Source: a virus
Lineage: Duplodnaviria > Caudoviricetes
Reading direction: 5' to 3' (one strand)
DNA length: 63,132 bases
Virus record (IMG/VR): IMGVR_UViG_3300005095_000109
Coordinates: 1-63,132 of that record
The notes under the pieces were generated by a model. The model did not search any database, was not told the DNA's origin, and saw nothing but the letters and a program-made list of their open reading frames with translations. The translations under genes and the position numbers were made by a program. This document shows positions 1 to 62,879 of this stretch, in pieces (position 1 is the first letter of the stretch; every line of letters starts with the position of its first letter).

Positions 1-91
1 CGCTCCTATATAACCATCTACCCACGCAGAACAAACACTATACAACTTGGCTATCACACCATACCACATAGCTCTCCTACAACCATCACAT
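1..91. repeat. Terminal direct repeat (copy 1), most likely circular assembly overlap
   Basis: 1-91 is identical to 63042-63132. Confidence 0.97.
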
Positions 92-561
92 AATCCACCA
101 TAATCAGACTCTACAAATAAACCACTAACCAACAAATCATCTACAAACCTAACCACATCACTAACAACACCACCACAATCACACGAACCTACACCAACAC
201 ACACACCAGAATTAATACAACCTCCCAACTCAACAACCCTACGCAAATTTACCCTCATCACACCACAACTCCATAAACACTCATACAAAACCTCCTTCCT
301 CAATAACCGCTCCAAACCTATAACCCTACCTACAAAACCACTCTGCCTCAAAACATCCCTCAACTCACTTAATCCTCCCAACATAACCCAGTTGTCTATA
401 CCACTGCCATCCTTCAACACACCAATAAACCTAACTCGCTCACTCACTAAACCACTCAAAATATCACCACCACTAACTAACTCAAAATCACCCAACCCAA
501 ATAACCCAGACCTGTAATCACCTCGCAATCCTTCCCAAATACTACTACTAACAACAAACAT
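1..561 (-). CDS. 5' part of a 240-aa hypothetical protein that spans the circular junction (ends at 62880)
   Basis: Hand translation from the ATG at 561 (MFVVSSSIWEGLRGDYRSG...) is open and in frame with the 62880..63110 ORF. A TAAGTTTG box (579-586) lies 17 nt upstream. Confidence 0.75.
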   Translation of the reverse strand, partial: MFVVSSSIWEGLRGDYRSGLFGLGDFELVSGGDILSGLVSERVRFIGVLKDGSGIDNWVMLGGLSELRDVLRQSGFVGRVIGLERLLRKEVLYECLWSCGVMRVNLRRVVELGGCINSGVCVGVGSCDCGGVVSDVVRFVDDLLVSGLFVESDYGGLCDGCRRAMWYGVIAKLYSVCSAWVDGYIGA

Positions 562-744
562 CTCACTACCATTTTACACAAACTTACAAAAATAATTAAA
601 AACACTCATTAAACTAAACACAATACACACCAGCCAGATGAATAAGAGATGTGCAAGCGAGCAGTTACGGCACATTTAAATTCCAAAAACACATTTGGCT
701 CCCCCGGGGCACTCTCCGCCACAGAAAAGCATTATGCTTTCCTG

Positions 745-778
745 AAAAAAAGACCCCCCACCCTTGCGGGCAGGGGGT
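745..778 (-). terminator. Intrinsic terminator after the 784..1074 gene
   Basis: Minus strand ACCCCCT-GCCC-GCAA-GGG-TGGGGGGT followed by C and T7. Confidence 0.7.
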
Positions 779-783
779 GCCCC

Positions 784-1074
784 TTACCGCGGCCACGGGT
801 GCTCCATGAGCACCCTGCCACGGATGGCCTCCACAATAGCGGAGGCCTTTTCGCCGCGGGGCGGGGCATACCCCGCGGCATACGCCGCCCTGCGGAGGGC
901 GGCATAAGCACTCCCGGCGCCGAAGCGCCGGGAAATCCGCCCACCCCGGTCTCCGACCAGGGTGAGCGTTATAACTCCGTCCGGGCCTTTCTCGGCCCGG
1001 ACGTCTTTGATTGCCTCTGCCCCGAAGGCCCAGCTATCGCTGGGCCCTGGGGCTCTTATTAGCTCGTCTATCAT
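784..1074 (-). CDS. Hypothetical early protein (96 aa, GC-rich)
   Basis: The shared motif lies 23 nt upstream and a terminator lies downstream. Confidence 0.7.
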   Translation of the reverse strand: MIDELIRAPGPSDSWAFGAEAIKDVRAEKGPDGVITLTLVGDRGGRISRRFGAGSAYAALRRAAYAAGYAPPRGEKASAIVEAIRGRVLMEHPWPR

Positions 1075-1093
1075 GGCTCTTTGATTTTACGTA

Positions 1094-1106
1094 TAGTAAC
1101 ATTTAA
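1094..1106 (-). promoter_or_regulatory. Early promoter-like motif variant TTAAATGTTACTA
   Basis: Aligns with the 3630-3642 copy over TTAAATGTT-NN-TATAC-N-TAAAATCA, with the same 23-nt distance to ATG. Confidence 0.65.
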
Positions 1107-1163
1107 TCTCTTTCTCCAGAGAGTACAGAGCAGCAGAGAGCAGTAAGACGGTCTGGCGGTGAG

Positions 1164-1234
1164 AAAAAAAAGAGAGAGCCACTTAGGCTCTGTGGCGGCC
1201 CGTGCCACCTCTACCACAGAGCCCTATGGCTCTC
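1164..1234 (-). terminator. Long terminator hairpin closing the putative ncRNA
   Basis: Stems 1174-1181/1227-1234 and 1186-1195/1214-1223, followed by U8 (A8 at 1164-1171 on +). Confidence 0.7.
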
Positions 1235-1515
1235 ATCCACTCCCGGCCTCCTGCTTACGTCAGTGCCCGGCAAGCCTGTGCGGCACGGCACCGGCGTTCC
1301 CTTTCGGGACCTTACGCCGGCTGCCTGGGACACAGGCAATCCCTCTTGTCCCGGACACTTCGGGGGTCGGCTGATTATAGCGGGGCCCACCCAGCGGATA
1401 ACCCCCTGGCACTTGCCGACCACACAGTGGCTACTTCGCGCAGGCTGTCCCCCAGGCGGACCCTCCACCTGCGCTTTTCACCACTGTGCTCCCCGCTCAC
1501 CAGAGAGCAAAATCA
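1164..1515 (-). ncRNA. Putative large structured non-coding RNA (~350 nt) of unrecognised family
   Basis: Has its own promoter motif (1520-1532), at least 8 nested helices, a GAAA tetraloop, a possible pseudoknot, and a terminal hairpin plus U8. No credible ORF. Confidence 0.7.
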
Positions 1516-1519
1516 CAGA

Positions 1520-1532
1520 TAAGAACATTTAA
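1520..1532 (-). promoter_or_regulatory. Early promoter-like motif TTAAATGTTCTTA
   Basis: Exact 13-mer that also occurs at 2055-2067 and 3630-3642. Confidence 0.65.
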
Positions 1533-1628
1533 AAAAAAGAGGCAGGCGGTAATCGGCTATCCGTCCCGGGCCGTGCCGAAACGCCCCCTGCGACCTTTCG
1601 CGCTGGGGACGCTGTCTCACCTGCCTCT
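1531..1628 (-). terminator. Branched terminator structure after the 1642..2028 gene
   Basis: A GAGGCAGG/CCTGCCTC closing stem with two inner hairpins, followed by U8. Confidence 0.55.
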
Positions 1629-1641
1629 CTGCCTGGGACCC

Positions 1642-2028
1642 TTAGACGCTTTCCCAGCGTCTTTTCTCTGGGTCCCAGACCCATTTCCGCGGCCCTTTGG
1701 CCAACCATTGCTGGTCTGCCTCTTTGGCCGCCACCCACTCATCGTGGGCGGCGACCACCTTGGCCGCGGTGTCCAGTAGCGCGCTGTGGCGCCGCTGGAC
1801 TTCCTCCCGGAACCCGGGCTCGCCGGGTTCCGGTTCGCGGTCCCTCATTCCGTATGCTATTTGGAATGGGACCGCTTTTATTACTCTTTCGAGTAGGCCT
1901 GCGGCCATCTGTTCTTTGGCTTGCAGGCCCACTTTCCACTCCCCCTCGTAGTAGTAGAGGGGGATTTCTAGGCCCTCCTCCAACTGGAGGAGGGCCTTTC
2001 CTAGTTCCTGCCACTCCAGTCTCTTCAT
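1642..2028 (-). CDS. Hypothetical early protein (128 aa)
   Basis: Protein-like composition, promoter motif upstream, terminator downstream. Confidence 0.8.
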   Translation of the reverse strand: MKRLEWQELGKALLQLEEGLEIPLYYYEGEWKVGLQAKEQMAAGLLERVIKAVPFQIAYGMRDREPEPGEPGFREEVQRRHSALLDTAAKVVAAHDEWVAAKEADQQWLAKGPRKWVWDPEKRRWESV

Positions 2029-2054
2029 CTTTCTCTTATTTTAAGGTTAACACC

Positions 2055-2067
2055 TAAGAACATTTAA
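2055..2067 (-). promoter_or_regulatory. Early promoter-like motif TTAAATGTTCTTA
   Basis: Exact 13-mer upstream of the ATG at 2028. Confidence 0.65.
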
Positions 2068-2615
2068 GAGAGAGTTAGAGGTAGAGTTAGAGATATAGAG
2101 ATGTTGAAGTGTAAAACTCTACTGCTCTACTACTTTATATGCTCTGCTACTCTACTACTTCATTTCTCTACTTGTCACTGTCGTGGTTCTCTAGTGTCTG
2201 CTCTGTGGCTCCAGTGTTCTTGTGTTTCTGTCTCCATTCGCCAGCCTGCTGTTATCTCTTGCCACTGCTACAGTGCTCTGCTACTGTCTCCAGAACTATG
2301 CTATCTGCTCTGTTGCTTTGCCATTGCTATGGCTCTGCTCTTCTCCGCTTCTACCCATCTCTCCATCTCCAGGTCTCTGTCTTCAAGAGCTAAGAGAAGT
2401 GGGACTGTCGGTCGGTCGGTCAGCCAGTTTCTTGTCTCTACTGCTCTATCACTGCGTGGCAACTAAGCAATGCAGTGCGTCTGTTGGTCGGTCTATGTTA
2501 CTACTGCCACTGCTTACGCTACTGCTCACACTGCAGATAGAGAGCAGTGGCACAGGCTGTCGGCATGAGCAGAACGAACGCAACGAACGCAACGCATCGC
2601 AACAGCAGAACTGCA

Positions 2616-2709
2616 ATCGCTGGCTCTCAAAGAGGGTGGGCGGGTGGGAATAAACGAAACGCGTTGAAACGCATCGCTCTGGCTCTGAAGAGGGTGGGTG
2701 GGTTGGGAA
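2616..2709 (+). repeat. Imperfect direct repeat; each unit ends in a canonical G-quadruplex motif
   Basis: TGGCTCT(C/G)AA(A)GA precedes GGGTGGGCGGGTGGG (2634-2648) and GGGTGGGTGGGTTGGG (2692-2707). Confidence 0.7.
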
Positions 2710-2714
2710 ACTGT

Positions 2715-2742
2715 AAAAAACGCAGCCCCATTGCGGGGCTGC
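2715..2742 (-). terminator. Intrinsic terminator downstream of the tRNA
   Basis: GCAGCCCC-GCAAT-GGGGCTGC followed by G and T6 on the minus strand. Confidence 0.8.
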
Positions 2743-2788
2743 TCACGGCGCTGGCAACATGTCACTGTCGCTCTGTTTAGGCGACGGT

Positions 2789-2865
2789 TGGTGGGCCCGG
2801 CAGGGCTTGAACCTGCGACCTGCGGATTATGAGTCCGCCGCTCTGACCTGCTGAGCTACGGGCCC
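2789..2865 (-). tRNA. tRNA with CAT anticodon, probably tRNA-Ile2 (lysidine type); elongator Met not excluded
   Basis: GGGCCCG acceptor stem, TAGCTCAG D-arm start, GCGGA-CTCATAA-TCCGC anticodon arm, GGTTCAAG T-loop and encoded CCA. C4:G69/C5:G68 pairs match Ile2 tRNAs. Confidence 0.93.
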
Positions 2866-2876
2866 AGATGGAGCCT

Positions 2877-3227
2877 CTACGGCTCCTCTCCGAGTAGTTC
2901 ATAGAATTCGCTGTCGTCGTCATCTTCTTCTGTGTTGTTCACTTCTCTGACGACGAACCCACGTAGCCCTCTGAACCGCTCCTTCAGTTCCTCTAAACTC
3001 AGTTCCCTACCGCGGTCCTCAGGCTTCAGTTCTAACTCTGGCGTCCACACCTCTTTACATCGTGCCGCTAAGTGTAGAGGCAGAACGCCTGCCACCACCT
3101 TCCCGTCAAGAACAGACGGGTCTGTGACGTGAGTAAGTAGTTCTGTCTTCTCGTCCGCCACCCCTAACTCCTTAAGAAGTTGCACCAGAGCAGGGTGGCG
3201 GGTGATAATGATTTCTACTCTCCTCAT
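2877..3227 (-). CDS. csx16: Csx16 (VVA1548)-like protein, candidate cyclic oligoadenylate ring nuclease
   Basis: Motifs ITRHPA, THV, VAGVLPLHLAA and RGRELSLEEL follow the Csx16 pattern in order and spacing. Acidic C-terminal tail. Confidence 0.72.
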   Translation of the reverse strand: MRRVEIIITRHPALVQLLKELGVADEKTELLTHVTDPSVLDGKVVAGVLPLHLAARCKEVWTPELELKPEDRGRELSLEELKERFRGLRGFVVREVNNTEEDDDDSEFYELLGEEP

Positions 3228-3610
3228 TGCTCTACGATTTTGCTTTTTATTTCTTCAAGAACTGCGTCTTGCTCTTCTGCGTCGGCGGCAGACTCCTCAA
3301 TCTCCTGAGCCGTTATGTCGTAGTACATCTTGCTCGGACTCAGAAGACGCAAGTTCTCCAACCAGTTCTCGCCATAACGTGGCGGCTGGTTGGGCGGGGT
3401 TGTTAGGGCAATCAGCTGCTCCAGAATGTTTTCCAGAACAGCCTGCGAGCCGCGGTGCATAATCTTGCAACGCTTGCTCTGTTGGCCGCGCTGCAGGTAT
3501 ATTACTATTCTGTCTGCGTTCACAACCACCGACTTTATGAGATCGCCACGCGCCAGACGTGGCGTTAGTCGGTGGCCCCTCTTTCCGTTTGTCTTCTCTT
3601 GTGCTGCCAT
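3224..3610 (-). CDS. Hypothetical early protein (128 aa)
   Basis: First gene after the promoter motif, with an ATGA overlap onto the Csx16-like gene. Confidence 0.8.
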   Translation of the reverse strand: MAAQEKTNGKRGHRLTPRLARGDLIKSVVVNADRIVIYLQRGQQSKRCKIMHRGSQAVLENILEQLIALTTPPNQPPRYGENWLENLRLLSPSKMYYDITAQEIEESAADAEEQDAVLEEIKSKIVEQ

Positions 3611-3629
3611 TGTTTGATGATTTTATGTA

Positions 3630-3642
3630 TAAGAACATTTAA
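3630..3642 (-). promoter_or_regulatory. Early promoter-like motif TTAAATGTTCTTA
   Basis: Exact 13-mer upstream of the ATG at 3610. Confidence 0.65.
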
Positions 3643-3654
3643 TTAATTAAAGTG

Positions 3655-3700
3655 AAACTGAAAGTGTAGGCAGAGCCTGCCCTGTGAGCGGACAGGCTCT
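3655..3700 (-). terminator. Hairpin ending the 8383-3716 operon
   Basis: AGAGCCTG/CAGGCTCT stem (3672-3700) with a weak U-tract. Confidence 0.5.
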
Positions 3701-3715
3701 CCTTAAGTTTTCTTT

Positions 3716-4087
3716 TCACGTTGTCAGTTGTTCAAGGTATTCTATACTTCTTTCTTTTGCGAAATTGATATCTTTATCTGATATAGTATTTAGTATATAT
3801 TCTATATCTTTTTCTGACAGAATTCTTATTTCTACTGTTATATTGTTTTCTTTTATTTGTACGTATGTTTCTTTGATTGATGCTATTTCTGATAGTGTTT
3901 CTGCTATTATTTTTCTTGTTTTAGGTTCTTTTTGTTCTGTTTCTATGAATGGTTCGTAGTCATATACTTCTTGATTATTGTATTCATATAGATTGTATGT
4001 TTGTGTTTCTATTATTTCTATTATTTGTTCTGTTGATTTGATTGGTATTTGTTTTTCTTTTGTGTGTATTATTATTTGTACTTTCAT
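3716..4087 (-). CDS. Hypothetical protein (123 aa)
   Basis: Translationally coupled ORF in the minus-strand operon. Confidence 0.8.
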   Translation of the reverse strand: MKVQIIIHTKEKQIPIKSTEQIIEIIETQTYNLYEYNNQEVYDYEPFIETEQKEPKTRKIIAETLSEIASIKETYVQIKENNITVEIRILSEKDIEYILNTISDKDINFAKERSIEYLEQLTT

Positions 4088-4476
4088 TGCTGTATTATTT
4101 TGTTATGTATTAGTTTCAGGTATTTTATTGTTAATGCTTTTCTGTTTAGTGTAGACATATCTATTTGTACGTAGTCTTCTATTTCAATGTACTTTATTAT
4201 CATTTCTGCTTTTGTTTCTTTTGTTAGGTTTCTTAGTATTGAGTATTCTGTGAATGTTGCTATTTCTTTTACTGTTGTTGTGTTGTTTATTTTCTGTATT
4301 AGCCTTACTTTGTTTCCTGGTTTAAAGTTTTGTTTTTGCAGTATTGTTTTTGTTATTCTGTATGGTACTTCGTGTAATGGTATTACTGCGTCTGTTGTTT
4401 CTTTAATTTTGTGTGCTGCTTCTATTATTGTGTCTTCTGTTATTATGATTTCTTGTTTTAGAACTTCTTGAGCCAT
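4084..4476 (-). CDS. Hypothetical protein (130 aa)
   Basis: Overlapping, co-oriented ORF. Confidence 0.8.
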   Translation of the reverse strand: MAQEVLKQEIIITEDTIIEAAHKIKETTDAVIPLHEVPYRITKTILQKQNFKPGNKVRLIQKINNTTTVKEIATFTEYSILRNLTKETKAEMIIKYIEIEDYVQIDMSTLNRKALTIKYLKLIHNKIIQQ

Positions 4477-4814
4477 TCTTGTTTGATTTTCTTTAGTTCT
4501 TTGTTTAGTTTGTTTATGATTTTGATTGCTTTTTTTCCTGCTTTTTGTGCTTGTTTGAGTTCTTTGCTTAGTCTTTTGTAGTTTTCTATTGGGATGTTTT
4601 TGTAGATGTATATGAAGTGGTCTGTAGTTGGTTTAGTGAGCAGTGGTGCTTCTGTTCCTACTCTGCATCCGTTCCATTTGCTTTGTGCGTGTGTTGATAT
4701 TAGCGGTAGTAGTTCCATTGGTTGTATTGGTAGTTCTGTTTTTGCGTAGATATCTACGATTAGTTTGATATGTTTTCCGTTTTGTGTTGTTGCTGTGATT
4801 TTTGCTTTTACCAT
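4458..4814 (-). CDS. Hypothetical protein (118 aa)
   Basis: Overlapping, co-oriented ORF. Confidence 0.8.
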   Translation of the reverse strand: MVKAKITATTQNGKHIKLIVDIYAKTELPIQPMELLPLISTHAQSKWNGCRVGTEAPLLTKPTTDHFIYIYKNIPIENYKRLSKELKQAQKAGKKAIKIINKLNKELKKIKQEWLKKF

Positions 4815-5509
4815 GGTGTGTTTATTTTGTTGTGTTCATTTATTAATTGTTGTGCTATTTTTCTTGTTAGTTTTTTGATTTTTGGTGGTATTGGTTTTTG
4901 TTTTGTTGCTTTTATGATTATTTTGTGTAGTGATGTTGTTGCTATTGAGTTGCTTTCGTTTAGTATTATTTGTTCTGGTTTGTTTTTGTTGTTTGCTACT
5001 ATAAATTTGCTTGTTGTTTTTGTTGCTTTATCTTTTATAAATGCTATATATTCTATTGCATAGTTATCTATTCGCAAGTTTGGTGTTATAGATTTTATGT
5101 TTGTTGTTTCTGTTTCTATTTCTGTGTAGTATGTTTTTTGTTTTATGTTTGTTATTCTGAGTCTTCTTGGCTTGTCTTGGTCAATTATGTCTAATATATG
5201 CATATTTCTTACTTTGTTAATTAGTTCTGGTATGTTCATTGTGTGCATTGTTTCTGTTTTGTTTTTTATGATGTATCTGTTCATGTCTGTTCTTGTTGAT
5301 GCTGCTATGTATTCGTTTTCTGTTTCTATGATTATTTCGTTGTTTATAATGTCTTTGATTTTCATTCTTGTTATTACTGGCACTATGGTTATGTATATGT
5401 TGTTTTTTCTAATTGTTTCTGTTGAGTCTGTGTTTTTTAGCGTTTTTAGTTCTTCTGTTTCTATTAGTTTGTAATCTGTGCCGTCGTCTGAAAATATTCT
5501 TAGTATCAT
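4808..5509 (-). CDS. Hypothetical protein (233 aa, I/K/T/N-rich)
   Basis: ATGA overlap with the amidoligase gene. Confidence 0.8.
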   Translation of the reverse strand: MILRIFSDDGTDYKLIETEELKTLKNTDSTETIRKNNIYITIVPVITRMKIKDIINNEIIIETENEYIAASTRTDMNRYIIKNKTETMHTMNIPELINKVRNMHILDIIDQDKPRRLRITNIKQKTYYTEIETETTNIKSITPNLRIDNYAIEYIAFIKDKATKTTSKFIVANNKNKPEQIILNESNSIATTSLHKIIIKATKQKPIPPKIKKLTRKIAQQLINEHNKINTPW

Positions 5510-6204
5510 TGTGTTTTGATTTTACTTGTGAACTTGTTTAGTCTTGCTGGTGGCAGGTTTGATTCTTCTATTTCTTTTGTGTATTCTGTTTGTTTTCCTG
5601 CAAGGACTCTATTTATTTGCTTTATTCTTTCAAATATTCCGAATGCTTTTGTTATTGGTCCGCTTATTCTGAACTCTACTGTTTTGAAGTTTTCTCTGAC
5701 TGCTATTGGCGTGTCCTTTATAAATTGCTTTGCTCGTTTAATTTTGTTTGTTTTGTTGATTCCGAGGAATTCTGCGTCTAGTGTTCTTCCCCATTTTGCG
5801 TATTCTTCTTTAATTACTTTTATGTTGTCATTAAATCTTCTTTCCAGTCTGTTTAGGTATTGTAGATACTCAATTATGTTATACATTTCCAATGCGTTTA
5901 TTGCTCTGATTGGGATATGTATATGTAGTCCGTTTGCTTCGCACAAGTGTACTTCGTTTAGTATTTTTTCAAGGTCTGTTACTATTTGTTCTGGTGTTCC
6001 TTTCAGTTTGAATTCTACGTGGTCGTATTCATCTGAGAATGTTCCGTCGTGTATTCCTTTATGGAATGCTGGTGTGTCGCTGTCTATTGAGTGTTCTGTT
6101 ATTACTCCTTGGCATGTTTGCAGTTCTGTTTTTAGTTCTTCTGCGTCGTAGTAGTCGAATAGACACTCTACTTCTACTCCTATTATGGTGTTTTTCTTTA
6201 TCAT
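5506..6204 (-). CDS. Putative amidoligase (COOH-NH2 ligase), divergent paralog
   Basis: GVEVE, HDGT, VEF, GLHIHI and TVEFR motifs. Confidence 0.75.
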   Translation of the reverse strand: MIKKNTIIGVEVECLFDYYDAEELKTELQTCQGVITEHSIDSDTPAFHKGIHDGTFSDEYDHVEFKLKGTPEQIVTDLEKILNEVHLCEANGLHIHIPIRAINALEMYNIIEYLQYLNRLERRFNDNIKVIKEEYAKWGRTLDAEFLGINKTNKIKRAKQFIKDTPIAVRENFKTVEFRISGPITKAFGIFERIKQINRVLAGKQTEYTKEIEESNLPPARLNKFTSKIKTQ

Positions 6205-6219
6205 TTTTGCTTTATTTAC

Positions 6220-6825
6220 TTATTTTACTGTTAGTATTTCTTTTGCTTTTCTGACCAGTTCTATGTCTGGTCTTGATAGGAATATTTTTTCGTTTAGTTT
6301 GAACCAGTTTCCTATGAAGTGCATTTTTGTTTCCCAGATGAGTATGAATCTTGCTTTTGTTTTCTTTTCTTGAAGTTTTAAGTATTCAATTACTTGTTGT
6401 TCTGTTGCTCCGTGTTCTATTGAGTCTTTTATTACCCAAGCCAGTAGTGCTGTGTCTGATAGGTTGCTATAGATTGGGTCTTTTGTTACTGTTCCGTTTT
6501 GGAACAGTAGTTTGTCTGTTGTTCCTTTTAGTCTCTTAATTGGGTTTTCAGTTAGCGGAAATGGATGTGTGAGTTGTTTGTTTGTCTTTCCTGCGCTTGT
6601 TTTACGTAGGTGGATTACTACTTCTGTTTTTCCAAGTATTCTGTTTACGTTAAGTAGTAATCCCTCTGGTGTCATTATTCCCTTTCTGAATTTCCATTTG
6701 TTTTCTTTTCTGTATGCGAACCCTGCGCCATCTTTGTTGGTTTTCCAGTTCGCTATTATTAGGTTGTTAACTATTTGCACTTCGCTTGATGTAAGGTTTT
6801 TTCTTGTTGCTATTATCAAGCACAT
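6220..6825 (-). CDS. Class II (Ntn) glutamine amidotransferase
   Basis: N-terminal MC, NKDGAG, IHLRKTSAG, THPF, QNG and SDT. Confidence 0.85.
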   Translation of the reverse strand: MCLIIATRKNLTSSEVQIVNNLIIANWKTNKDGAGFAYRKENKWKFRKGIMTPEGLLLNVNRILGKTEVVIHLRKTSAGKTNKQLTHPFPLTENPIKRLKGTTDKLLFQNGTVTKDPIYSNLSDTALLAWVIKDSIEHGATEQQVIEYLKLQEKKTKARFILIWETKMHFIGNWFKLNEKIFLSRPDIELVRKAKEILTVK

Positions 6826-6845
6826 TGCTTCTTTGTTTTTTGAGT

Positions 6846-7430
6846 TTATAGACCTGCGCTTGTAATTATTTCATGTTCTTCGTTGTATCTGAAGTTTTCT
6901 GTTATGTATAGTTTGTGTTCTCCGTTAAAGTCTGTTACTGCGAACTTTCCTCCGTTTGTGTCGTACGCGTATTCTATTGCTATGTGTGCTGGTAGCAGAG
7001 AGATGAGACGTGCCAGTTCAGCTGTGTCTGATTCACCAGTAGTAGTGTTTATAGAGCAGCCTCCGTAGTAGCAAGAGTATGTCTTTTCTCCCATTCCGCT
7101 AATCACTCCGTTGTGGAACAGGAGTTTGTCTGTTATGCCCTCCATTATATTGTAGTGCTTCTTCTTAACCAGTTCAGTTAACTGGAATGGATGTGTCATT
7201 TGTGGTCTTACGCCGCCTGCTGTAGCAAGCCTTACGTGGACTATTATCAGTTCTTTATCTGTGTGTTTTTTCAGTTCTTCTTTCAGTTCCTTGAGGGTCA
7301 TTATTCCACGTCTGAAATACCAGCCGTCTTTGACTGGGACTGCGAGCCCTGCTCCGTCGCTGTTTTGAATCCACTGGTAGTCTATTACTTCTAATATATT
7401 CCCCGCTTTACCTATTAGAATGTTACACAT
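6846..7430 (-). CDS. Class II (Ntn) glutamine amidotransferase
   Basis: N-terminal MC, NSDGAG, VHVRLATAG, THPF, HNGVI and SDT. Confidence 0.88.
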   Translation of the reverse strand: MCNILIGKAGNILEVIDYQWIQNSDGAGLAVPVKDGWYFRRGIMTLKELKEELKKHTDKELIIVHVRLATAGGVRPQMTHPFQLTELVKKKHYNIMEGITDKLLFHNGVISGMGEKTYSCYYGGCSINTTTGESDTAELARLISLLPAHIAIEYAYDTNGGKFAVTDFNGEHKLYITENFRYNEEHEIITSAGL

Positions 7431-7441
7431 TTCTTTTAGAT

Positions 7442-8383
7442 TTAAGTGAATAATGGTATTGTTGCAATTAGGCTGTTTACTTCTTTGATGTTTTTTCTTT
7501 TGATTGTGTTTACTAATTCTGCGTATTTTTTCTGTTCTGCAAGTTTTCTGATGTGGCTCCAGTTCAGTTTTCTTATTTTGCTTGGTGAGTCAAATTGTTC
7601 TGTTATTAATTCTGTCAGGACGTCTGCGAATTGAAGTCTCGCTTTAATCTCGTATAAGTCAAGCGTTCCCTCAAATATTCTCAGTTCAACTGTCTTACCG
7701 GCAGTGCCCCTTAGGTTGTATCCGTTTACTGCACAGTTTCTGTTTCTCTGCATATAGTCTCTTAGCATGTCTATAACGTCTCCTTCTTGCATCAGTATGT
7801 GCATTGGATATTCGGTATATCCGTTGTCTTTTCTGTTTGTGAGTTTGAGCAGACCTGGTATTAATCTCATCAGCGCTAACATTACATATTCCGGGATTAT
7901 CTCATATGTTCTGTTGTTTTTTCTATACCTTCTTTGGATATGTATGTGCAATCCAGCATTTACGTTTTTTCCTGTCGTTACTTCTAAGTCGTGTTCATAT
8001 ATTATGTCAAAGACTTCTCTTAGCATATCCACCAGCGTTTCTATTCCTTTTTTATCTGCTGGCATTGGCGGTGATACTATTTCGCATCCATAGTTGTATA
8101 CGCTGCCGTCATATTTGACTGCCGGGGTGCTATGTGTTGCCAAATGTAGTCTGTTTAGTGTTTTTGTGAAGTAATCTTGTTCCATTTCGCTCTCAAACGA
8201 AATCTCTATTTCACAGCCTATCCGTTTTCTTCTTGTTAATATTCCGTTCCACTCAAGCCTCCTGTCATATCTGAACATGTCATTTGTTCTTGTAATCTCA
8301 TCTGGTCTCATGTTTCTTCTGAATGTGAAGAGCAGTTCGTATTCAATCCCTGCTCTTCTTGCCTCTCTTTCCAAAATGCTCAT
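7442..8383 (-). CDS. Putative amidoligase (COOH-NH2 ligase type 2)
   Basis: IGCEIE, YDGSV, GCEIVSPP, AGLHIHI and TVELRIFEGT. Confidence 0.88.
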   Translation of the reverse strand: MSILEREARRAGIEYELLFTFRRNMRPDEITRTNDMFRYDRRLEWNGILTRRKRIGCEIEISFESEMEQDYFTKTLNRLHLATHSTPAVKYDGSVYNYGCEIVSPPMPADKKGIETLVDMLREVFDIIYEHDLEVTTGKNVNAGLHIHIQRRYRKNNRTYEIIPEYVMLALMRLIPGLLKLTNRKDNGYTEYPMHILMQEGDVIDMLRDYMQRNRNCAVNGYNLRGTAGKTVELRIFEGTLDLYEIKARLQFADVLTELITEQFDSPSKIRKLNWSHIRKLAEQKKYAELVNTIKRKNIKEVNSLIATIPLFT

Positions 8384-39753: not shown

Positions 39754-42700
39754 TTAGCGAATTCTATATGAAACAGACCCAACTACTTTTGTTCTTTTCC
39801 TTTTATTTGCCTGTTCATATTTCCTCATTAGAGATAGTGCTTGGTTAGGCACTATTGGCGTTACCGTTAGCGAGAACGCTTTAAGGTAGTCTCGTGTCAA
39901 CTGCATAGGTGTTGACTCCCCTTTGGCAAAGTCAATTGTTCTATATGTAGAGTTTGCTATAGCCTGCATAAAGTTGAAGCCTATTGGTAGCCTTATGCCA
40001 TATGTTGGCAGGTCAAGGATTTTATTAACTGTTGCTGGCAGATAGTAAGATGCTGGGTATGCTACTAATCCAAGTGAGTTGTTTATAAATGAAGCGGCTG
40101 CTGTCTTTGCTATACGTTCCTGTTCCTTTTCTTTTGTCTTTCTTTTCTCGCCAGTAAGCAGTTCTTTGAGGAAATCAATAGCAGCAAGGAAAAGCGATGT
40201 TAGGATTATAGCAAGCCCGTAGTATGACAAACGCTTTGTATTCCTATACTTAAGGTAATCTCTTAAACCGAGCACGAAGTTTGAGAAGATAGGCCAAGAT
40301 GGCGTTGTAAACATTGTAAATAGCCTAATCCACGAGTAATAAATTTCTGGTCTGAAGGTTGTCGTGTACATTGGTTGTGTGCTCCTGACTGCGTTATAAG
40401 TGTTTTCAGATACGTATTTAGCCCATTCTCTCGTGCCTTTCTTTAACCCCATTTTTTGTGCCTTCTCTGCATATCTATTCCACGTTTCTATAATCATTTC
40501 TCTATCTGCATATGCAATCATTGACATTGTTGATTCCATACTTGTTGCATCAATAATTTTCTGTGCTACTTTTTTGCCGAACATTTTTGTTAACAATTTT
40601 CCTGCTTCAATAGAGACAGATGTTTTAGTCCCGAACAAGTCTTCAACAGTGTAGTATGACAATAGTGGTGTTGATATAAGCCTTGCGGCAATAAGTCCAG
40701 TAGTATCATACTCAATTATTTCCCTTATTCTTGGGTCGTTCAACTCTCTCATTATAGACTCTGGCTTTGACTTGATTGCTCTTGCCTGTTCAACTGGTGC
40801 CCCTTTGATTATCCTTCCGACAAGAGTTATTGCCCTACCTATTGATTTAAGGTCCCCAGTAGCCGCTCCGAGGGTTACAAGACCAGCCGCCTGCTTAATA
40901 GCAGAGAATATGTTCATAAAGAATATAAATGCCACTTCTATTTTCATTTGTCTATCAAGGAGGCGTTGCCACTTTGCCTCATTTAATTGAGGGGCGTAAT
41001 ACCTATTTACGAAACTCTTTATCTTCTGGACAAGGAACCTATACATTTCGCTTCCGTATCTATCGCCGTAGGAAGTTACTGTTTTTGCAATCTTCTTATA
41101 GTTCATCACTGGGAATGTATATCCATAAACTGTTGAGGCAAGCCTTTGTGAAAGTGTCAGGACTGTATAGGCGTCAGTGATTGTTACAGCCTCGTTTTTA
41201 CGTTTATGCATATCAATGTATGGGTTATCAAATATGTTGGCAACTCCCTTTATCTGGACTGAAAGAGGGGTGCCAATGCCAGATACTCTTGGGACAAACA
41301 GACCATCTGCTTTATTCTCATAGCCGAAAGCCTTTTTAACTATTGAGTTAGTTTCGTTTTTCAGTATTCTAAATGCCTGTTCAAAAGCCTGTGCCTCTTC
41401 TTTGAAATGTGCATTGACAATACTATTAATTGCTTTTTCAAATGACTTGAAAGCACTTTCATCTCCGAACCATATGCTTCTTTTCTTAATGTCATCTCTA
41501 TCAGAACCATAGATAATACCATGTTCTTTAATATCTTCTCTTGCCTTGTTATCTTTTAGATACAGGTATACTGTTATAATCTCTGCCGGAGTTAACTCAT
41601 GGACGTCTTCAAACTCTTCAATTTCTTCCTGCCCTTTATTCCAAACTTTTTTAACATTTGTAAATTTCACTTTCATCTTAGGCACGTCCTTTCTGCTAAC
41701 TGTTACATACTCGCTTGACCTAATATGCTGTGAACCATCTGCCAACTTTTTGTTCTTCAGAGTTGGTGTTATAAGTTTCTGCACCCGCATAGTCAGTTTA
41801 CTTGCCATCATGTCGCCATGTTCAAAAGCGAGATAAAGACCTTTATACAGTGCGTTATCTGTCCCGCCAGCAATCAAGTTAAAGAATGCGTGTGGTTGCA
41901 GGAATGAAGACAACTTAAACGTCTTAAACATTTTAACAACCAATGGGTCTGAGGCAGCAGTTGATATTTGCGTTACCATCTCGTTATCAAGATAGTCATT
42001 ATATGTAGATGTGATAGCCCTTCCATCAGCTGCTTGGAATGTGTTTTTGGAAGACAAAACTCTGTTTATCAAAGCCAGAGCTCTTACTGCAACTATAACA
42101 TCGCTTAACGCCAAGTCCCTAAGGACAATTTCATTGCCATTCTGCAATTTTAGACTTGCGACTGGGCTCTTGCCGTCATATTCTATTTCAAGTGTTCCAT
42201 TAAGTATTTGCTGTATTGTTTCATCAGAAAGCCTGCCATCTGGGTTATCACCAAAGAGCAGATTAAAAACACTCATTGGATTAGCATCGTCATATGCGGC
42301 TCCTTGTAAGTTAGTTAGACCAGATAATGAGTTATCAAGGAAGTTGCCAAAGCCTTTTAGCCCAAGTATAGCCTTACTAATCTGATGTTCTTTATCATCG
42401 CCTATTATATCGTCAAGTTGTCTAAATATCTGTAACATTGCTTGTTTACGTGCTGGGATGTCAAGGGACATAATACCTGAATCCACTTCATTTGAAATGA
42501 AAAATCCGAACGATAGATAATCAAGTATTTCGTCTGCTGCTGTTATTATGTCATCTGCGCTTTTAATTTCAGTGTAATGCTGTTCCACCCCCTCTGTATC
42601 AGCCACTATGCCGGGGTTAATCTCATCAAAATGCTGCTCAAACAGGTTGTCTGGTTGGTGCTGTGCTTGCTGCTTTATTTCTTGCTGTGCTGGCTGCGTT

Positions 42701-45700
42701 TGTAGTTGTGGTTGCTTAATGCCCTGCTTTTCAAGTATTTGCCTTGCTTCACCAGTCGGCGTTAACCTGCGCAGGTCTGCTTCATAAAATAGTTTAGCAA
42801 GTCTCTCATAACCTATAGAACTTTTTATCAGCCACTTAAGCCTTGTCCAGAACTTGTATATAACCTTTAGCACACCCTTCAACTCATTAATCTTGCGTTC
42901 ATCTTGTAGCCTTCTGACGTAAGAGACAGCAAGCATCTCAGCAAGCCGTTCCTCTCCGTATTTGTCTATTAGCCTTTTAACGAGTGGGTCTTCCCTGAAC
43001 ATATCTATATAGACGTGTGCGAATTCGTGAGGGGCGGTTGTTATTCTCCCATCAACCAACGACCACGCAACTAAATAACTAAGTTCTCTTTTTTGCATAT
43101 ATCCAAGTCTCTTGCCTAACTTTTCATCATATATTCTAATTTCAACAAATGGGTATTTAGCCATTAAGTCTTTAACTATTGCCTTGTATAGTTCTTCATT
43201 TTCTATAATTCTAACCATACTTTCACGTTCAATCATATAATCGGCATCTTCTATTTGGCTTTTGATTTCTGCTTCATTTATTGATACTACTTCAATGCTC
43301 TCTTCACTTAGTTTAACCAGTCGTGGCACAACACCTTTCTTGGCAAGATTAATGATTGATTCTGTTATCTTATCTATATCGCCTTGTGCACCAAGGACAT
43401 CTTTCAAAATCTTCTTAATCTGTTCCATATCCTTTTTAGCAACTGCTTCTTTTAATGTGTTGTTTATAGTTTCAATATCCTGTGTTTCGCTTGCTCTCTT
43501 GAGCAACTTTATAGTTGTTTTCCGCCCGCTTGATAACGCATTTGCTAATGCTTCTGCTATTGATGCCCTCTTGCTTGTCGGGATATAGAAGCCGAATACA
43601 TCCTTATCATTTACTATTCCTATTTTATCAAACTTGGTATTAAGAATTAAGTTATCATCAATAGTATTTGACGCCTGCAATTTCTGAGACAAAGAGATTG
43701 CAGACTTAATGGATTCAAGCAGGTTAGGGTTGCTAACTGCTATTCTACTTAATACATTAATAGTCCTTGCAGAAAGGTCATTTATAACCTTATCTATATC
43801 AAGCCCATTTAAGTTAACTTCAGTTACTGATATATTAATTCCAGGTGGTATGTATATCTTAGCTTGTGCTTTACCTCCAATTTCATTTATCCTGACAGCT
43901 ACATCAACTGTTTGTAGGCTATTTATTAAATCTTTTATCTTATCGGCAACTTCTCTGTTAACATTTAGCGATTGTAGATGTGTTATTAGCATACTGCTAA
44001 AGTCAACTCCGCTGACTATAACTTCTTGTTTTGGTATGCCGTCAAAGTATGGTGTTATTTTAACGAGACTATTATCTGCTGGCTCAGCAAGTCCAGGCAT
44101 ATATGCAAGTTCATGGTATCGTGTTGTTATTAGTTTTTGTTTTGATTGTCTATCTTCAACTACCTTATCATATTTGATCTTCAGTATTACATAGTTATTA
44201 GGTGTCTGAGGCGGTATTGCAGATAAAGCGTCTGCCAGGTCAGGAGGCAGATTAGTTAATACCTTGCTTAGCTCCTGTTGCGTTGGCTTTTCAACAGTCA
44301 ATTTCCTATACTCATATGCATTGTGCTTTCTAACCCTTATGTTAAACTCATTTAATCCTGCAAGCAGGATTATGTTCTCCCTTGTGTTATATGGATGTAA
44401 TGGGTTTATGAGCATATACTTACTGCCTGCAATATCAAACAATATAAACCTTTCTTTCTCTAAATCATACTTAACCATTCCGTGCACTACGCCCTCAGGG
44501 CGTGATTTCCTTAATATGTTTGTTGCAAGAGATTCTCTTAAAGCCTGTAATTTGTCTTCCTTGCTTATACCTGCTATTGATTCTGTTATTTGCATTAGTT
44601 CCTGCTCTGGTAATAATGACATAACTGGCGATGCGGCAAACACGCCGTTCTTAGCTGTCATAACATATGCTATTGGCTTCAGGTATATAGATGATAGGTC
44701 GGGAGATGCGTTTATAAGTTTCTTTATTGCGAGCCATTCGTGAGGTGATACATTAGTAAATGTCAAGTCAACACCATTCTTTTTGAATGGCGACTTTATT
44801 CTTTTCTTTTCAAGCCATCCTATTATGTTCTTCACCTGTGAAGGCCCGATAAAATGCTCACCATTAATTGAGTATGCTGATAATAGCCGTGCTATGTGGA
44901 ATGGCATCCTGCCGTTTAGTTTAGCGTTGTATAGGTCTATATTCATTTTCATCCACAGGCGTTCGCTTGGTGCCTCGCCATACATAGCCTTATCAACAAG
45001 GTATGCGCTGTATAATTCAAGTGCAGGACGTATCTCTGTTTCGTATCCTTTGAATATGCTGTATTCTCTGAATGGGAGGAACACAGTAGATAGCGGTTCG
45101 TAGATTTTTGAGTATATGTATCCAGCAAAGTCTGCGTATTCAGATTGTATTGCGAATTCTGTTTTTTCTACGCCTGGATAAGCCTTATGTTCATCAAGTG
45201 CTATCCTTACACGAATCATCTCCTCAATAGATGATGGTATTGACCTGTATATGCCGAGGATTGGGGCAACATACGATATTGCTTCCTGCCCAGCTGCCAG
45301 ATAGTCCATTTTTTCAAGGCGATATTCAAGGGACATATCTCCATAGAATGCTTCTACTGCCTGCGCGTATAAGTGTGCTGGCATTGAGAAGTAATCATAT
45401 CCATTTTTAACTGCATATTTTTCAACAAAGTCATACATATTTATTATTTCAGATATTACTTCAGATATTTCGTTTCCGTGCAGGATAGCCCCTGCTATGT
45501 AGTTAAGTGATGCTGAGTTAATGAGCATTCTGGATATTGCGAAGTTGTTATTGTTGTCGTCCAGTGCGGCCTGCACGAATATATCAAGGCTTTTGACTAC
45601 GCCTTCTTTCTGCAACAGTTCCTGTATGTTTATCGTCTTCCTGCGTCGCACTATTATCTCTTCTTCTTCTGTTTCCTGTGTTGTGTATCCTGTATATGAC

Positions 45701-48700
45701 ATTTTATCGACAACGCTTATTAACTTTCTCAGGACGACAAGCGTGCTTATAGCATCGTTAGCAGAGCGAGTTCGTGCTGAAATCTTTAGCCTTGCAGACC
45801 TATTTTCAAGAGACAGTTCTTTATCTAAATCAGCTTTTCCGCTTTTGCTTAATGCACTTAATAACCTATCGTATATTTCTTTGTAATAGCCTTCATCGTC
45901 AATTATCTTCTTAACTGTTTCCGGTGTGAACCTCACAACTTCTTGCAGGTCGTTTGGAAGTGTTATTTTGTATTTCTTAGCAAGCATAGCCAGTTCAACT
46001 ACATCAGCAAGATTTGACATCCCAGATGGGTCAAGTTTATAGTCTCTAATTGCTTCATCAACAGAGTTATATACTTGCTCTGCTGTTTTGACCAATTTGG
46101 ATAGTGCTTTTGCTATTTTCAGTGATTGCATTGACCACCCCCATTCAGGCGTGTTTACATTTTTTATCTCTTTTTGTATCTTTAGCCCTTTTAGTTTTAG
46201 ATATTGTGTTATTAACTCATTAATATCTTTTTCTGTTTTAACATTATCAATGTTATTCATTATATAGTCTATCATATCATTGACAAGAGAAACATAGTCT
46301 CCTTCATGAGTTTTACTTGCTATTATTTTAAAAAATGTTTGACCTGTTATTTCTTTCATTCCCCTTAAGTCCTCATATATGAAAGGTGCTATTGCTTTTA
46401 TGCCTTTTGACACTATGTAGTCCATTATAATTTTCCTCATACCTCCATCTTCAGGGAACACAAATAGGGCATCTCCATCGTAGTCGGCATCAGCCCTGAC
46501 CCTGTCCCTTACTCCACGGATAATGATATTTGCGTGCAGGCGTCTCCTTGCTTTATTAGAGTAGTATTCTCCAGTATGCCCTATTACCTTTGAGAATGCT
46601 ATATTTGGTGCCTGAGTAGGGACACGGATAGTCATTATTTTTTCGCCCCGCTTAGCTACCATAGGAGACACGATAGCCTTACCATCAATAAGCAATTCAC
46701 CAGTTGAAGGAGACCCCATATCTGGGACCTCATATAAGTGTGCTCCGGGCAGTTCTGCACGTGCCGCCCGCTTATGGAACATCTTAGCAAGCGTTGGGAT
46801 TATGATGGAAGCATATTCTATGTTATGCATAACTGCTTCTGTCATTGCCTTCGCCTCGTCTATGTCTTCTTCCGCTTTGCTTTTTATTGCTTTATCTATT
46901 TTGTCCTGAAGCAGTTTGAACATTTTAGACAGTGATTCAGAAACATTTGTTTTCCAAGCGGCATCGGCACCTTGTATAGCACCAACTATCGCTTCCTTCA
47001 TAGTTCGCAGAAAACCTATATCAGAGTTGTCCCAGTTGTTGAGCGTCGCCTCAATCAGTTCCTTATATGCATTCCACAGTTCTTTCACCCTTTCTGGGTC
47101 CTGAGCCACAGATTTAATTGTTGTATAAGCCATTAGCGGGAACAACGATGAGGACTGTTCGTCAACTGGTTTGTTGGTATTAATGACTATGCCGAATGTT
47201 GATGAGTCAACATATGGCTCTTCCTCCTTTATGTATTCTGCTATATCTGTTGCTATATCCTTAACTGCTTTCTTTACTTTGAGTTTTGCTCTTTTTGCTA
47301 CTTGTTGACCATTCACCTCTTCTGTTTCTATTGCTTCAATATCAAATATGTCAAAGACTTGTATCGGACCGCCCCCCTTTGTTAAATGCCCTTTCATAGC
47401 AGAACTTGCTATAAACACAACTGCTGTGTTATCATCTATATGCCCCCTGCGTTTAAGTTCATCAAGTATTGCTTGCAGTCGTGATTCAACATATGACCTC
47501 CCACCTTCTATTTTAATGCCGCCCATTTTGCCATACAGAGGAGCCAGCGCATACCTGCCGTCTTTCTTTTTGTATGGTGCTAACCCATAGAGCATTGGCT
47601 TGATAAATGGGCTTGTATCATCAATACTTGCAGTATCGTTAATCAAGTCATACATTGCGTCGTTGTAGAAGCAGAAGCCGTCAAGCAGTTCTGTTTCTGC
47701 TACCTCATTACCTATGCGTAGTTTTATCTTCGGATCTTTGAATGGTATGATAAGCAATTTCTTCCCGGGAGCCAATCGTCTAATGGTTGGCGTCTTTGCA
47801 CCCTTAGTTATTTTCTGTTTCTTGCCGTGGGAGAGCATATCAGTAAACACAAGGTCTCCTGATGTAAGGACATCATATACGAAAGATGCCATAACTATAT
47901 CAGTTGCTATTTTCTTAAATGATTGCTTACCTATCTTGAACACATTAGCCTTTTTATCATATTGTATGTCATATTTGTTTTTCAGAAAACTTATCTGGCT
48001 CTGTGTAACGTCGTCAGGTGCCTTCACTTCTATGTATTCAATATCTGCTTCCTTCAGGAGTGATTCATATTCTTTTACAAGTTCATCCCTATACTTAGCA
48101 AGTCTTCCCTTAATGTCTTTATTATCAAGACCAACAGACTCTGCGATAAAATCCAAGTCGCTGTATTTATCAAAAACTTTAGCATCTTGATAAGTAGGCA
48201 TTTTAACAGCGTAAACTTCCCTGCTATCGCCGTGTGGCGGGCTAATGAAATAGAAGTATTTGCCCGCACTTTCAATTATTCCGTTTATATGCATCTTCAA
48301 CTGTGCTATTAGCTTATTCTTGTATGGCGCAGTAGCGAACTGTGTTGCCTTTTCGCCTATATATACGCTTGTGAACAAGCTAACCATATCACCGCCTTCT
48401 TGTTCTATCAATCTGTATATAAGTGTGTTCTTATACAACTCAGTTAGTTTGTTGATGTAGTCTTGTGCAGAGTTGAATTTTGCTATGCTTTGTATGAAGT
48501 ATTTCGCATTTGAGAATATTCGGATAACATTATTGACAAAACTTAGTGCATTGCCCTTTTCAGACCCCACATTGAAAGTCGTCTTGTTGTAGTAACCTTC
48601 TTTGATTAATTCCCCTATTATCTTCTTGTAGTAGTATGATACGCTTCTTATTTCCCTTACTTGTTTTTTCTTATCGTCTTTGTAAATGTTAAAGACAAGC

Positions 48701-61567: not shown

Positions 61568-61599
61568 AACAACTGCATTTTATTCACACACACACACCT

Positions 61600-61702
61600 A
61601 AACAAAATTAAATGCCGGACGGGGAAACAAATCAGTTAACCACCCGCCCGGCACTCAGTTGGGGGCACGCTGCATAGACTCCAAAACTACACAGCATGCC
61701 CC
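61600..61702 (-). terminator. Tandem hairpins between the HU-like and primase genes; the second is terminator-like
   Basis: Stems 61662-61702 and 61613-61653 pair with G-U only on the minus strand and are followed by TTTAATTTTGTTT. Confidence 0.6.
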
Positions 61703-61710
61703 TCATTCAA

Positions 61711-62199
61711 TTAACCCCTTCCATTCAACAAATCACGTAAACGCTTGCTCTGCTTAAAACGCATACGCCTAACCCTGCCAGTAACAACTCCTATAGGCGT
61801 ACGCCTCGGAGTTATGCTAAACTCCTTAACATCAAACCTGCCAAAACCCTTTATCGTTACTACAAAACCCTCATCAGCAGAACGCTTCAATAACTCAAAA
61901 TAATCACTAACTATATCACGCACAATAGCATACGGATAACCACTCAGCAAACTTAACAATAAACTCAAATCACCATGACTCAACCTGCCCCCAACACCCA
62001 TAGACATCAAACGCTCAGCCTCAACCCTGTCAATCCCACCCCTAAACCTAAACCTGTCCCTATACGACCTCATTAAACCCCTTAACTCACTACGACTACC
62101 CTCTCGCCATAAATCAATTAACTGTGTCCTGTCAAGACCTGAAAAATCCTTCACTACCCTGTCAACCCCAGAATGCCTCAAATAATCACTCTTAGTCAT
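61711..62199 (-). CDS. HU/IHF-family DNA-binding protein with N-terminal extension
   Basis: VTIKGFGRF..RRTP..RFKQSKRLRDLLN. Confidence 0.8.
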   Translation of the reverse strand: MTKSDYLRHSGVDRVVKDFSGLDRTQLIDLWREGSRSELRGLMRSYRDRFRFRGGIDRVEAERLMSMGVGGRLSHGDLSLLLSLLSGYPYAIVRDIVSDYFELLKRSADEGFVVTIKGFGRFDVKEFSITPRRTPIGVVTGRVRRMRFKQSKRLRDLLNGRG

Positions 62200-62210
62200 C
62201 TCTCCCTTAT

Positions 62211-62251
62211 TTTACATTTTTTGCAACGTATAATGAACACTAAAAAGTTCC
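62211..62251 (-). promoter_or_regulatory. ECF-sigma-like promoter GGAAC-N17-ACGT-N7-AATGTAAA
   Basis: Matches 8710-8749 and lies 11 nt before the HU-like ATG. Confidence 0.5.
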
Positions 62252-62289
62252 ACATTAAATAATGAACATTTTCGCCCCGTCCCTAAAGT

Positions 62290-62690
62290 GTCCCACCTGT
62301 CCCACCTAACGTCCCAAACCTTGGGACGGACCCCGCACCTGTAACTGGTTGAAAACCAGACAGTTATAAATCAAAATTTGGTCTTGTCCCATCAGAAAAA
62401 ATTATCCTGGGACGCACTTAACTGGCTGTGAGTGAGTATGTTATCACAAGTTAATGTGTGAATGTCCCAGCTGAATGCTATTTATTTATATATATATACT
62501 ACCCCCCTCTCTATTTTTTACCTTTTCACTTTTTATAAAAAAGATGGGACAGATATAGTAAAAGTATAGGAAACTCACTGAAACACACTTAGTTATAGCG
62601 TCCCACCCATACATGGGACACACAACATACACAAAAACAAAAAATAACTGAAACACACACAGTTATGCCACGTCCCATACCAAATGGGAC
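62290..62690. repeat. GTCCCA iteron-like cluster, candidate replication origin
   Basis: 7 forward and 5 reverse copies, four AACT...GTTA elements and a central AT-rich tract. Non-coding. Confidence 0.7.
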
Positions 62691-62879
62691 AAAACTCAAA
62701 ACTAAGGACACACACATAAGTTTACTTAACTCAAACACAAAATACACACACAAACCCAACTGTACAACAATATAACAACTATTTACTTGACAAAGTGTAA
62801 AAACTAAACAAAAACTCTAACACAACTAAACAAAAACACAACCAGATAAACACACATACACAACACAAATCACTCAATA

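Follow-up and report, generated by a model that had tools for sequence, protein, structure and literature searches.

A Csx16-family Protein Encoded by a crAss-like Phage Is a Candidate Anti-type III CRISPR Ring Nuclease

Results

Identification of a Csx16-family gene in a phage genome

The stretch of phage DNA analyzed here over its full length of 63,132 nt (the window) encodes a 116-residue protein of the Csx16 family, the product of a gene referred to below as csx16. This protein is probably a small homodimeric ring nuclease for cyclic tetra-adenylate (cA4), with which the phage would counter type III CRISPR signaling; we infer that it binds and cleaves cA4 and that it protects the phage in the cell. 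Counted in favor of a ring nuclease were a 54.4-bit match to Pfam family PF09652, the conserved polar residues, the fold, the dimer, a bias toward synonymous change and the cas-free context. Counted against it were a score of 25.3 bits with NCBIfam model TIGR02620 and the lack of any Foldseek structure match at E ≤ 0.001. A sequence-only reading of the same DNA had proposed a candidate anti-type III ring nuclease, a reasonable proposal given the Csx16 family and the cas-free crAss-like phage. The features of the locus are collected in Table 1.

The match to PF09652 (Cas_VVA1548/Csx16; cut-off 25, E = 1.5e-14) aligns residues 7–89 with model positions 2–86 of 91, a full-domain match above the gathering cut-off, and was recovered as well by a six-frame search of the whole record. 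PF09652 was the sole family reported, and DUF1874 (AcrIII-1) gave no match at E ≤ 1 in the Pfam search. Both the assignment to Csx16 and the statement that AcrIII-1 belongs to a different family, as made from sequence inspection, are thus borne out. A PHROGs search with csx16 and nine neighboring genes returned no family, one weak unnamed match aside.

The motifs picked out by the sequence-only reading in this 116-residue ORF can all be read from the translation: T9-R10-H11-P12-A13 (TRHPA), H33, the span from G47 to A55 (GVLPLHLAA), the span from R72 to S77 (RGRELS) and, in the C-terminal tail, the acidic stretch E100–E107 (EEDDDDSE). In an alignment of 28 sequences, no variation is seen at T9, R10, H11, G47, P50, A54, R72 or E75, and H33 reaches at least 90% conservation; in a 72-row viral alignment R10, H11, V45, G47 and P50 are invariant. 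Comparison with annotated plasmid and archaeal-virus Csx16 proteins showed H11, H33 and E75 to be invariant and T9, R10 and R72 to be at least 90% conserved. The named motifs are conserved columns of the Csx16 family, and R10, H11, H33, R72 and E75 persist across the members compared, whatever their TIGR02620 score. The conserved polar set (T9, R10, H11, H33, R72 and E75) is present in the csx16 protein and is compatible with ring-nuclease chemistry. None of the 27 relatives in the alignment with the protein has an equivalent of the acidic tail.

Given that a subset of the viral relatives (L005, L008–L010, L013, L017 and L018) has GVLPHSLSCL or GVLPHNLSCL in place of GVLPLHLAA, H52 and its neighbors are not fixed in the family.

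Table 1. Coordinates of csx16, its motif codons and the surrounding features in the window
Feature	Position	Strand	Remarks
csx16-like gene	2877..3227	(-)	ATG start; 116 aa; coordinates include stop codon; Cas_VVA1548 domain at residues 7–89
T9-R10-H11 codons	3195..3203	(-)	Loop after strand 1
H33 codon	3129..3131	(-)	Invariant or ≥90% conserved
G47-A55 codons (GVLPLHLAA)	3063..3089	(-)	Helix in predicted dimer interface
R72-S77 codons (RGRELS)	2997..3014	(-)	R72 and E75 are conserved polar residues
C-terminal tail, residues 98–116, and stop codon	2877..2936	(-)	Acidic (EEDDDDSE); low-confidence model
Upstream ORF, 128 aa	3224..3610	(-)	TGA overlaps csx16 ATG (ATGA); 52.7% GC
tRNA, anticodon CAT (called Met)	2789..2865	(-)	Begins 12 nt after csx16 stop, same strand
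Terminator-like hairpin	2722..2742	(-)	9 pairs (7 G-C), then T run; just past tRNA
GC-rich island	600..3640	.	200-nt windows mostly 50–70% GC; dip to 38% at 2001–2200; genome 40.3%

The csx16 protein and the TIGR02620 profile

TIGR02620 (cas_VVA1548) is a hypothetical equivalog domain model with a cut-off of 46.35 bits. Given that this cut-off is missed by the window protein and by its near relatives (17.5–25.8 bits), the csx16 protein is, on profile scores, a member of a divergent branch that lies away from the canonical CRISPR-linked seed. The RefSeq-named Csx16 of D. proteolyticus scores 24.8 bits, the proteins of A. silvanus (42.6 bits) and PhiF3 (45.5 bits) fall just below the cut-off, and an archaeal plasmid protein passes it with 59 bits. 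Among the viral hit segments, 3 of 72 reach about the cut-off, these being domain segments with scores that are perhaps slightly low.

A position under the TIGR02620 cut-off and away from type III loci means that specificity could have shifted. The protein might then be a cyclic-nucleotide sponge, or prefer cA3, cA6 or a CBASS product, and so act by sequestration or in another system; a sponge role is raised for the related Csx15, which was inactive in assay, in PMC12409355. Such a role is unlikely, however, as the His and Arg expected for catalysis are strictly conserved and, in the same study, the one Csx16 assayed was cA4-specific even at tenfold enzyme.

Predicted structure and dimer

An AlphaFold2 monomer model of the csx16 protein, built on the 28-sequence alignment, had a pLDDT of 90.5 and a pTM of 0.76, with confidence falling to ∼60 in residues 98–116. 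Strands are predicted at residues 6–8, 29–31, 44–47, 59–65 and 85–91 with helices between them, a five-strand α/β fold. With two protein copies and two AMP molecules, a symmetric homodimer was predicted with ipSAE values of 0.77, 0.78 and 0.76, whereas the best-scoring of three controls gave 0.00. The dimer runs had at least 83% of contacts in common and a partner pLDDT of at least 83, and the predicted interface places strand 89–96 against its mate and includes the LPLHLAA helix. The mark used for calling a dimer is reached by 20 of 30 solved one-chain pairs and by 1 of 23 solved single chains, counts that are only a rough guide here. An AlphaFold dimer with cA4 had been named as a check in the sequence-only reading; the prediction made here, with AMP, gave a homodimer.

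Foldseek searches with the model returned nothing at E ≤ 0.001 from either the PDB or BFVD, generic Rossmann-like folds only; sequence and the published description are therefore the basis of the fold assignment. In PMC12409355, Csx16 is described as dimeric, with helices flanking a sheet of five strands; the five-strand fold and the dimer of the present model, both predicted, agree with this.

Profile matches to DARPin and ankyrin-design PDB entries were also obtained and were judged to be spurious. They extend over only ∼20–40 profile positions within roughly residues 17–70 and arise via GxLPLHLAA, a chance likeness to the ankyrin consensus; the model is a single α/β domain, and there was no ankyrin match in Pfam.

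The phage is crAss-like and its genome is free of cas genes

A repeat of the first 91 nt at the other end of the record points to a circular assembly. In 60 ORFs, 24 Pfam families were detected, among them five crAss-specific structural families: crAss_MUZ (3.4e-62), Crass_capsid (2.8e-58), CrAss_Ring_1, CrAss_Ring_2 and CrAss_Ring_3_4. RecT, Prim-Pol, helicase and lysis domains are likewise among the 24 families from these ORFs, and an integrase is not. The nearest deposited phages to the capsid and terminase proteins are crAss-like or Bacteroidota-host phages, at 25–29% identity. The phage is genuinely, though distantly, crAss-like, and the capsid, muzzle and ring families support the sequence-only reading on this point; a putative Bacteroidota host is inferred. 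Megablast of positions 1–8000 against the phage collection gave no match, and peptide patterns from its primase and capsid did not retrieve related phages from IMG/VR.

Neither a Cas10 palm2 domain at E ≤ 1 nor a CRISPR-like repeat array was detected in the 63-kb genome. The only cas-named Pfam matches among the 60 ORFs and a 4727-aa ORF were Cas_VVA1548 and a weak match to Cas3-like_C_2 (E = 5.2e-4), the latter tentatively attributed to a helicase C-terminal domain. With no Cas10, no convincing cas family and no array, csx16 is neither part nor neighbor of a type III CRISPR-Cas locus here, in agreement with the earlier claim that the genome holds neither cas genes nor an array.

Several other features of the genome were recorded. 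Residues 918–1087 of the 4727-aa ORF (39754–53937, minus strand) form a YpsA SLOG domain in circularly permuted order (PF12694, E = 6e-28), and no other Pfam family was found in this ORF at E ≤ 0.001. GC skew is strong (−0.43 to −0.49) over the assembly junction (1–1000 and 61000–63132), and the ORF at 1–561 (minus strand) runs past the end of the record into the terminal repeat.

Local anatomy of the csx16 locus

The upstream ORF, csx16, tRNA-Met and the terminator-like hairpin follow one another in this order. The ATGA overlap suggests translational coupling of csx16 with the upstream ORF, for which neither a family nor an Atlas feature match was found and which has a single relative in 1.84 billion representatives. 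The hairpin is likely to be the end of the transcription unit; terminator-like sites over the genome are no more frequent than in shuffled sequences. A leftward block of genes starts near position 8383 and has csx16 as its final protein gene, and rightward replication genes run from 9034. This position would fit early expression. The “early gene” of the sequence-only reading is accordingly a positional statement, as the sequence does not show timing.

The tRNA has an encoded CCA end and a paired 1:72 position, and its anticodon stem lacks the three basal G-C pairs. Judging by eye and by general rules for such tRNAs, we take it to be an elongator Met or Ile2-type tRNA rather than an initiator. 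Farther upstream, an Amidoligase_2 protein (7442–8383, minus strand) adjoins two paralogous ORFs of ∼200 aa (6220–6825 and 6846–7430), both of which start Met-Cys, and an ORF at 5506–6204; no family was found for these three ORFs. The module at 5506–8383 (minus strand) presumably resembles the amidoligase and Ntn-amidotransferase modules of phages.

csx16, the upstream ORF, the tRNA and an ORF at 1642–2028 all lie in the GC-rich island. The GC content of csx16 is 52.7% and that of ORF 1642–2028 is 60%, as compared with 25–35% in the adjoining genes at 3716–5509, and the closest protein relatives are found on contigs of 66–67% GC. The composition of the island and the high-GC contigs of these relatives would fit acquisition from a higher-GC source.

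A related phage carries the same island

In the public sequencing run X1, 13% of sampled words were found, and contigs 90–95% alike at a depth of 3–5 represent a related phage (∼92%). These contigs cover 40–290, 422–720, 697–873 (over the left GC step), 2486–2884, 2977–3648, 3904–4233 and 4355–4706. Given that they cross both the left step and csx16, a related phage with the same island exists. Runs X2 and X3 held next to nothing of the stretch besides tRNA-like pieces.

The abrupt GC steps at ∼600 and ∼3640, together with the lack of an X1 contig bridging 3648–3904, are features that an assembly chimera or host contamination might leave. By contrast, the record closes on its 91-nt terminal overlap with the island internal, and the X1 contigs span the left step and flank the right one at similar depth. 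A chimeric or contaminant island is therefore very improbable, and is the least likely of the rival explanations.

Between csx16 and its X1 counterpart at least 25 substitutions are listed, with 21 at third and none at second codon positions (binomial p = 2.6e-7 for 21 of 25). Among the substitutions listed, which derive from one X1 contig at a depth of ∼5, 20 of 24 changed codons are synonymous, and the four replacements (E5D, K19Q, K27E and V34I) all fall at non-conserved positions. This pattern argues for purifying selection on the csx16 protein.

Elsewhere in the island, the stretch from 600 to 2800 reaches up to 70% GC and contains no convincing gene except ORF 1642–2028 (minus strand, 128 aa, no family); an Rfam search identified the tRNA only, with no known large RNA in this GC-rich stretch. 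It is variable, given that the X1 relative skips 1185–1530, 1598–1667 and 2413–2486. At 1699–1746 the listed substitutions spare the second codon positions of ORF 1642–2028.

Relatives of csx16 on mobile elements

A word-indexed search retrieved 27 further proteins, each belonging to PF09652, the best with 66% identity over 79% of the query, and a profile search found 1099 proteins at E ≤ 0.001 among 8000 scored candidates. In IMG/VR, 71 loci with relatives were identified (63 distinct hit segments). Relatives were retrieved with peptide patterns taken from those of csx16 itself, and the counts therefore describe its branch rather than the whole family. The Cas10 palm2 domain was found in none of the 71 IMG/VR records (0/36 and 0/35), including the 15 that are at least 90% complete. 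The crAss capsid was likewise found in none of the 71, with the window's own record as the positive control, so that the window is the sole carrier of this capsid among 72 Csx16-bearing records. When 12 window proteins from the region were compared with 74 other csx16 loci, csx16 alone recurred, aside from weak matches of ORFs 6220–6825 and 6846–7430, both to locus L046. Given that no neighboring gene recurs with it, csx16 appears to move as a single cassette.

The three species-representative genomes with relatives all have Cas10, located on other contigs. Near one of these relatives are a serine recombinase, another protein with a Csx16 domain, an SMC-like ATPase and a UvrD helicase. In the phylum of one of the genomes (G002), PF09652 was present in 6 of 301 genomes at nine places, none of which (0/9) was on a contig with Cas10. 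Given that no retrieved relative lies beside Cas10, the donor may equally be another mobile element, and the “captured host off-switch” of the sequence-only reading goes further than these loci do.

The flanks of 80 metagenome loci contain the mobile-element families ArdC-N, phage terminase and DNA polymerase A. For 83 large flanking ORFs, the Pfam results comprise the first 25 of 66 families and the PADLOC results are dominated by redundant GajB models, so that a lone Cas10 could hide in either. A phmmer search of 2374 ORFs with three Cas10 seeds, which are of limited reach, found nothing. In a tblastn search of a cultured-phage collection nothing was obtained at E ≤ 1e-3, and at E ≤ 10 the only plausible match was to Methanobacterium virus PhiF3, in which ORF30 is annotated as a member of the Csx16 family.

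Three plasmid records carry an annotated Csx16. The genes around it are for conjugation, partition, SSB and small hypothetical proteins, and no cas gene occurs within 9–10 kb. The RefSeq-named Csx16 genes on Deinococcota plasmids (L159 8992–9777; L163 99–2114, A. silvanus pMESIL02; L160 8995–9279, D. proteolyticus pDEIPR02) have a T4SS coupling protein, ParB, Rad52, SSB and many small hypothetical genes as neighbors, and no CRISPR loci. One plasmid Csx16, 261 aa long, has two domains in tandem, and another is a 671-aa protein with an N-terminal Csx16 domain, encoded beside an ankyrin-repeat gene.

Unusual architectures were noted at other loci. In a metagenome-assembled genome (L073, 8913–10273), a stand-alone Csx16 gene comes immediately after a 354-codon frame whose C-terminal part is a Csx16 domain. 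Genes for a large serine recombinase, an SMC-like ATPase and a UvrD helicase lie on the flanks of this pair, and the locus looks like an integrated element or a defense island. Apparent N- or C-terminal extensions of 100–250 aa are present at L046, L047, L054, L058 and L044, where starts are uncurated and high-GC frames over-extend.

Some of these observations are those expected if csx16, with no part in counter-defense, had come in as a passenger on a GC-rich island acquired recently, or had a phage-internal function: its GC content is above the genome mean, no neighboring gene is common to any of the 74 other loci, and only 1 of 72 Csx16-bearing IMG/VR records has the crAss capsid. Such a status is nevertheless improbable. 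Among the substitutions listed, purifying selection is strong between phage variants ∼8% apart; csx16 has an operon placement, its start codon overlapping the upstream stop; and the same single gene is carried independently by many phages and plasmids, which implies a selected, portable function.

Discussion

The reading preferred here is that of a phage ring nuclease. In the proposed mechanism, a type III CRISPR complex of the host would sense phage RNA, and its Cas10 subunit would make cA4. The phage protein would bind cA4 at the twofold face of the dimer, lined by the T9/R10/H11, H33 and R72/E75 loops, and metal-free cleavage would convert it to linear products. The cA4-dependent effectors would then never be switched on, or would be switched off early, which is the action of an anti-CRISPR ring nuclease.

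The biochemistry of the family has been described by Hoikkala et al. (2025; PMC12409355). Degradation of cA4 in EDTA buffer is shown there for one Csx16 and one Csx20, and in vitro Csx16 degraded cA4 and not cA6; the earlier claim that Csx16 degrades cA4 therefore agrees with published cA4-specific activity. The same study counted 68 type III loci with Csx16, and 2 phage genomes with it among the 28,114 of the Millard set. PMC8284326 gives an earlier prediction for Csx16 and notes that it is partly similar to DUF1874. Ring nucleases encoded by viruses and plasmids can act as anti-CRISPRs according to PMC12830947 and PMC13148439.

The window protein belongs to the same size class as Csx16 of type III loci (∼90–116 aa), has a whole-domain profile match and has the motifs T/S-R-H, His, G-x-L-P and R-G-x-E-L in common with it. 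By contrast, the window copy is phage-encoded without cas genes, scores below the TIGR02620 cut-off and ends in a 19-residue acidic tail. It can be grouped with stand-alone copies on other mobile elements, which also have no cas neighbors: PhiF3 ORF30, pDEIPR02, Allomeiothermus silvanus pMESIL02 and the archaeal plasmid LC711081. These phage and plasmid copies are 32–44% identical to the window protein and belong to other elements and hosts, and A. silvanus differs in having the tandem two-domain form and the 671-aa fusion. The established viral cA4 ring nuclease, AcrIII-1/Crn2 (DUF1874), forms a separate sequence family. Crn4b (PMC12830947) and the viral SAVED protein AcrIII-2/Crn5 (PMC12751052) belong to ring-nuclease families likewise found in phages and plasmids as presumed anti-CRISPRs; their folds are unrelated to that of Csx16 and their substrate ranges are broader or different.

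Literature searches on Csx16 or Cas_VVA1548 found no assay of a phage Csx16, and those on crAss-like phages and ring nucleases found no crAss-like example, one general review only. The novelty implied by the sequence-only reading is nonetheless reduced: Csx16 activity and the occurrence of Csx16 in phage genomes have been published (PMC12409355), and PhiF3 carries a copy. Given that the enzyme family, its substrate, its occurrence in phages and the counter-defense logic are already in print, the gain is incremental. Particular to this case are the crAss-like carrier, the GC-rich island with its tRNA, the acidic tail and, within the present sampling, the mobile-element branch.

It is possible, if somewhat doubtful, that the branch with low TIGR02620 scores (17–26 bits) lives mainly on phages and conjugative plasmids as an abundant putative anti-type III family, perhaps primarily an element-borne weapon like AcrIII-1, with kinetics or specificity that may differ from those of the cellular enzyme. 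The 71 cas-free IMG/VR loci, together with the plasmids, suggest that the published count of two phages understates the use of the Csx16 family by mobile elements. If active, the csx16 product would be the first ring-nuclease anti-CRISPR candidate that we have found described for a crAss-like phage and, if the proposed role is true, type III CRISPR signaling would be a real pressure on crAss-like phages.
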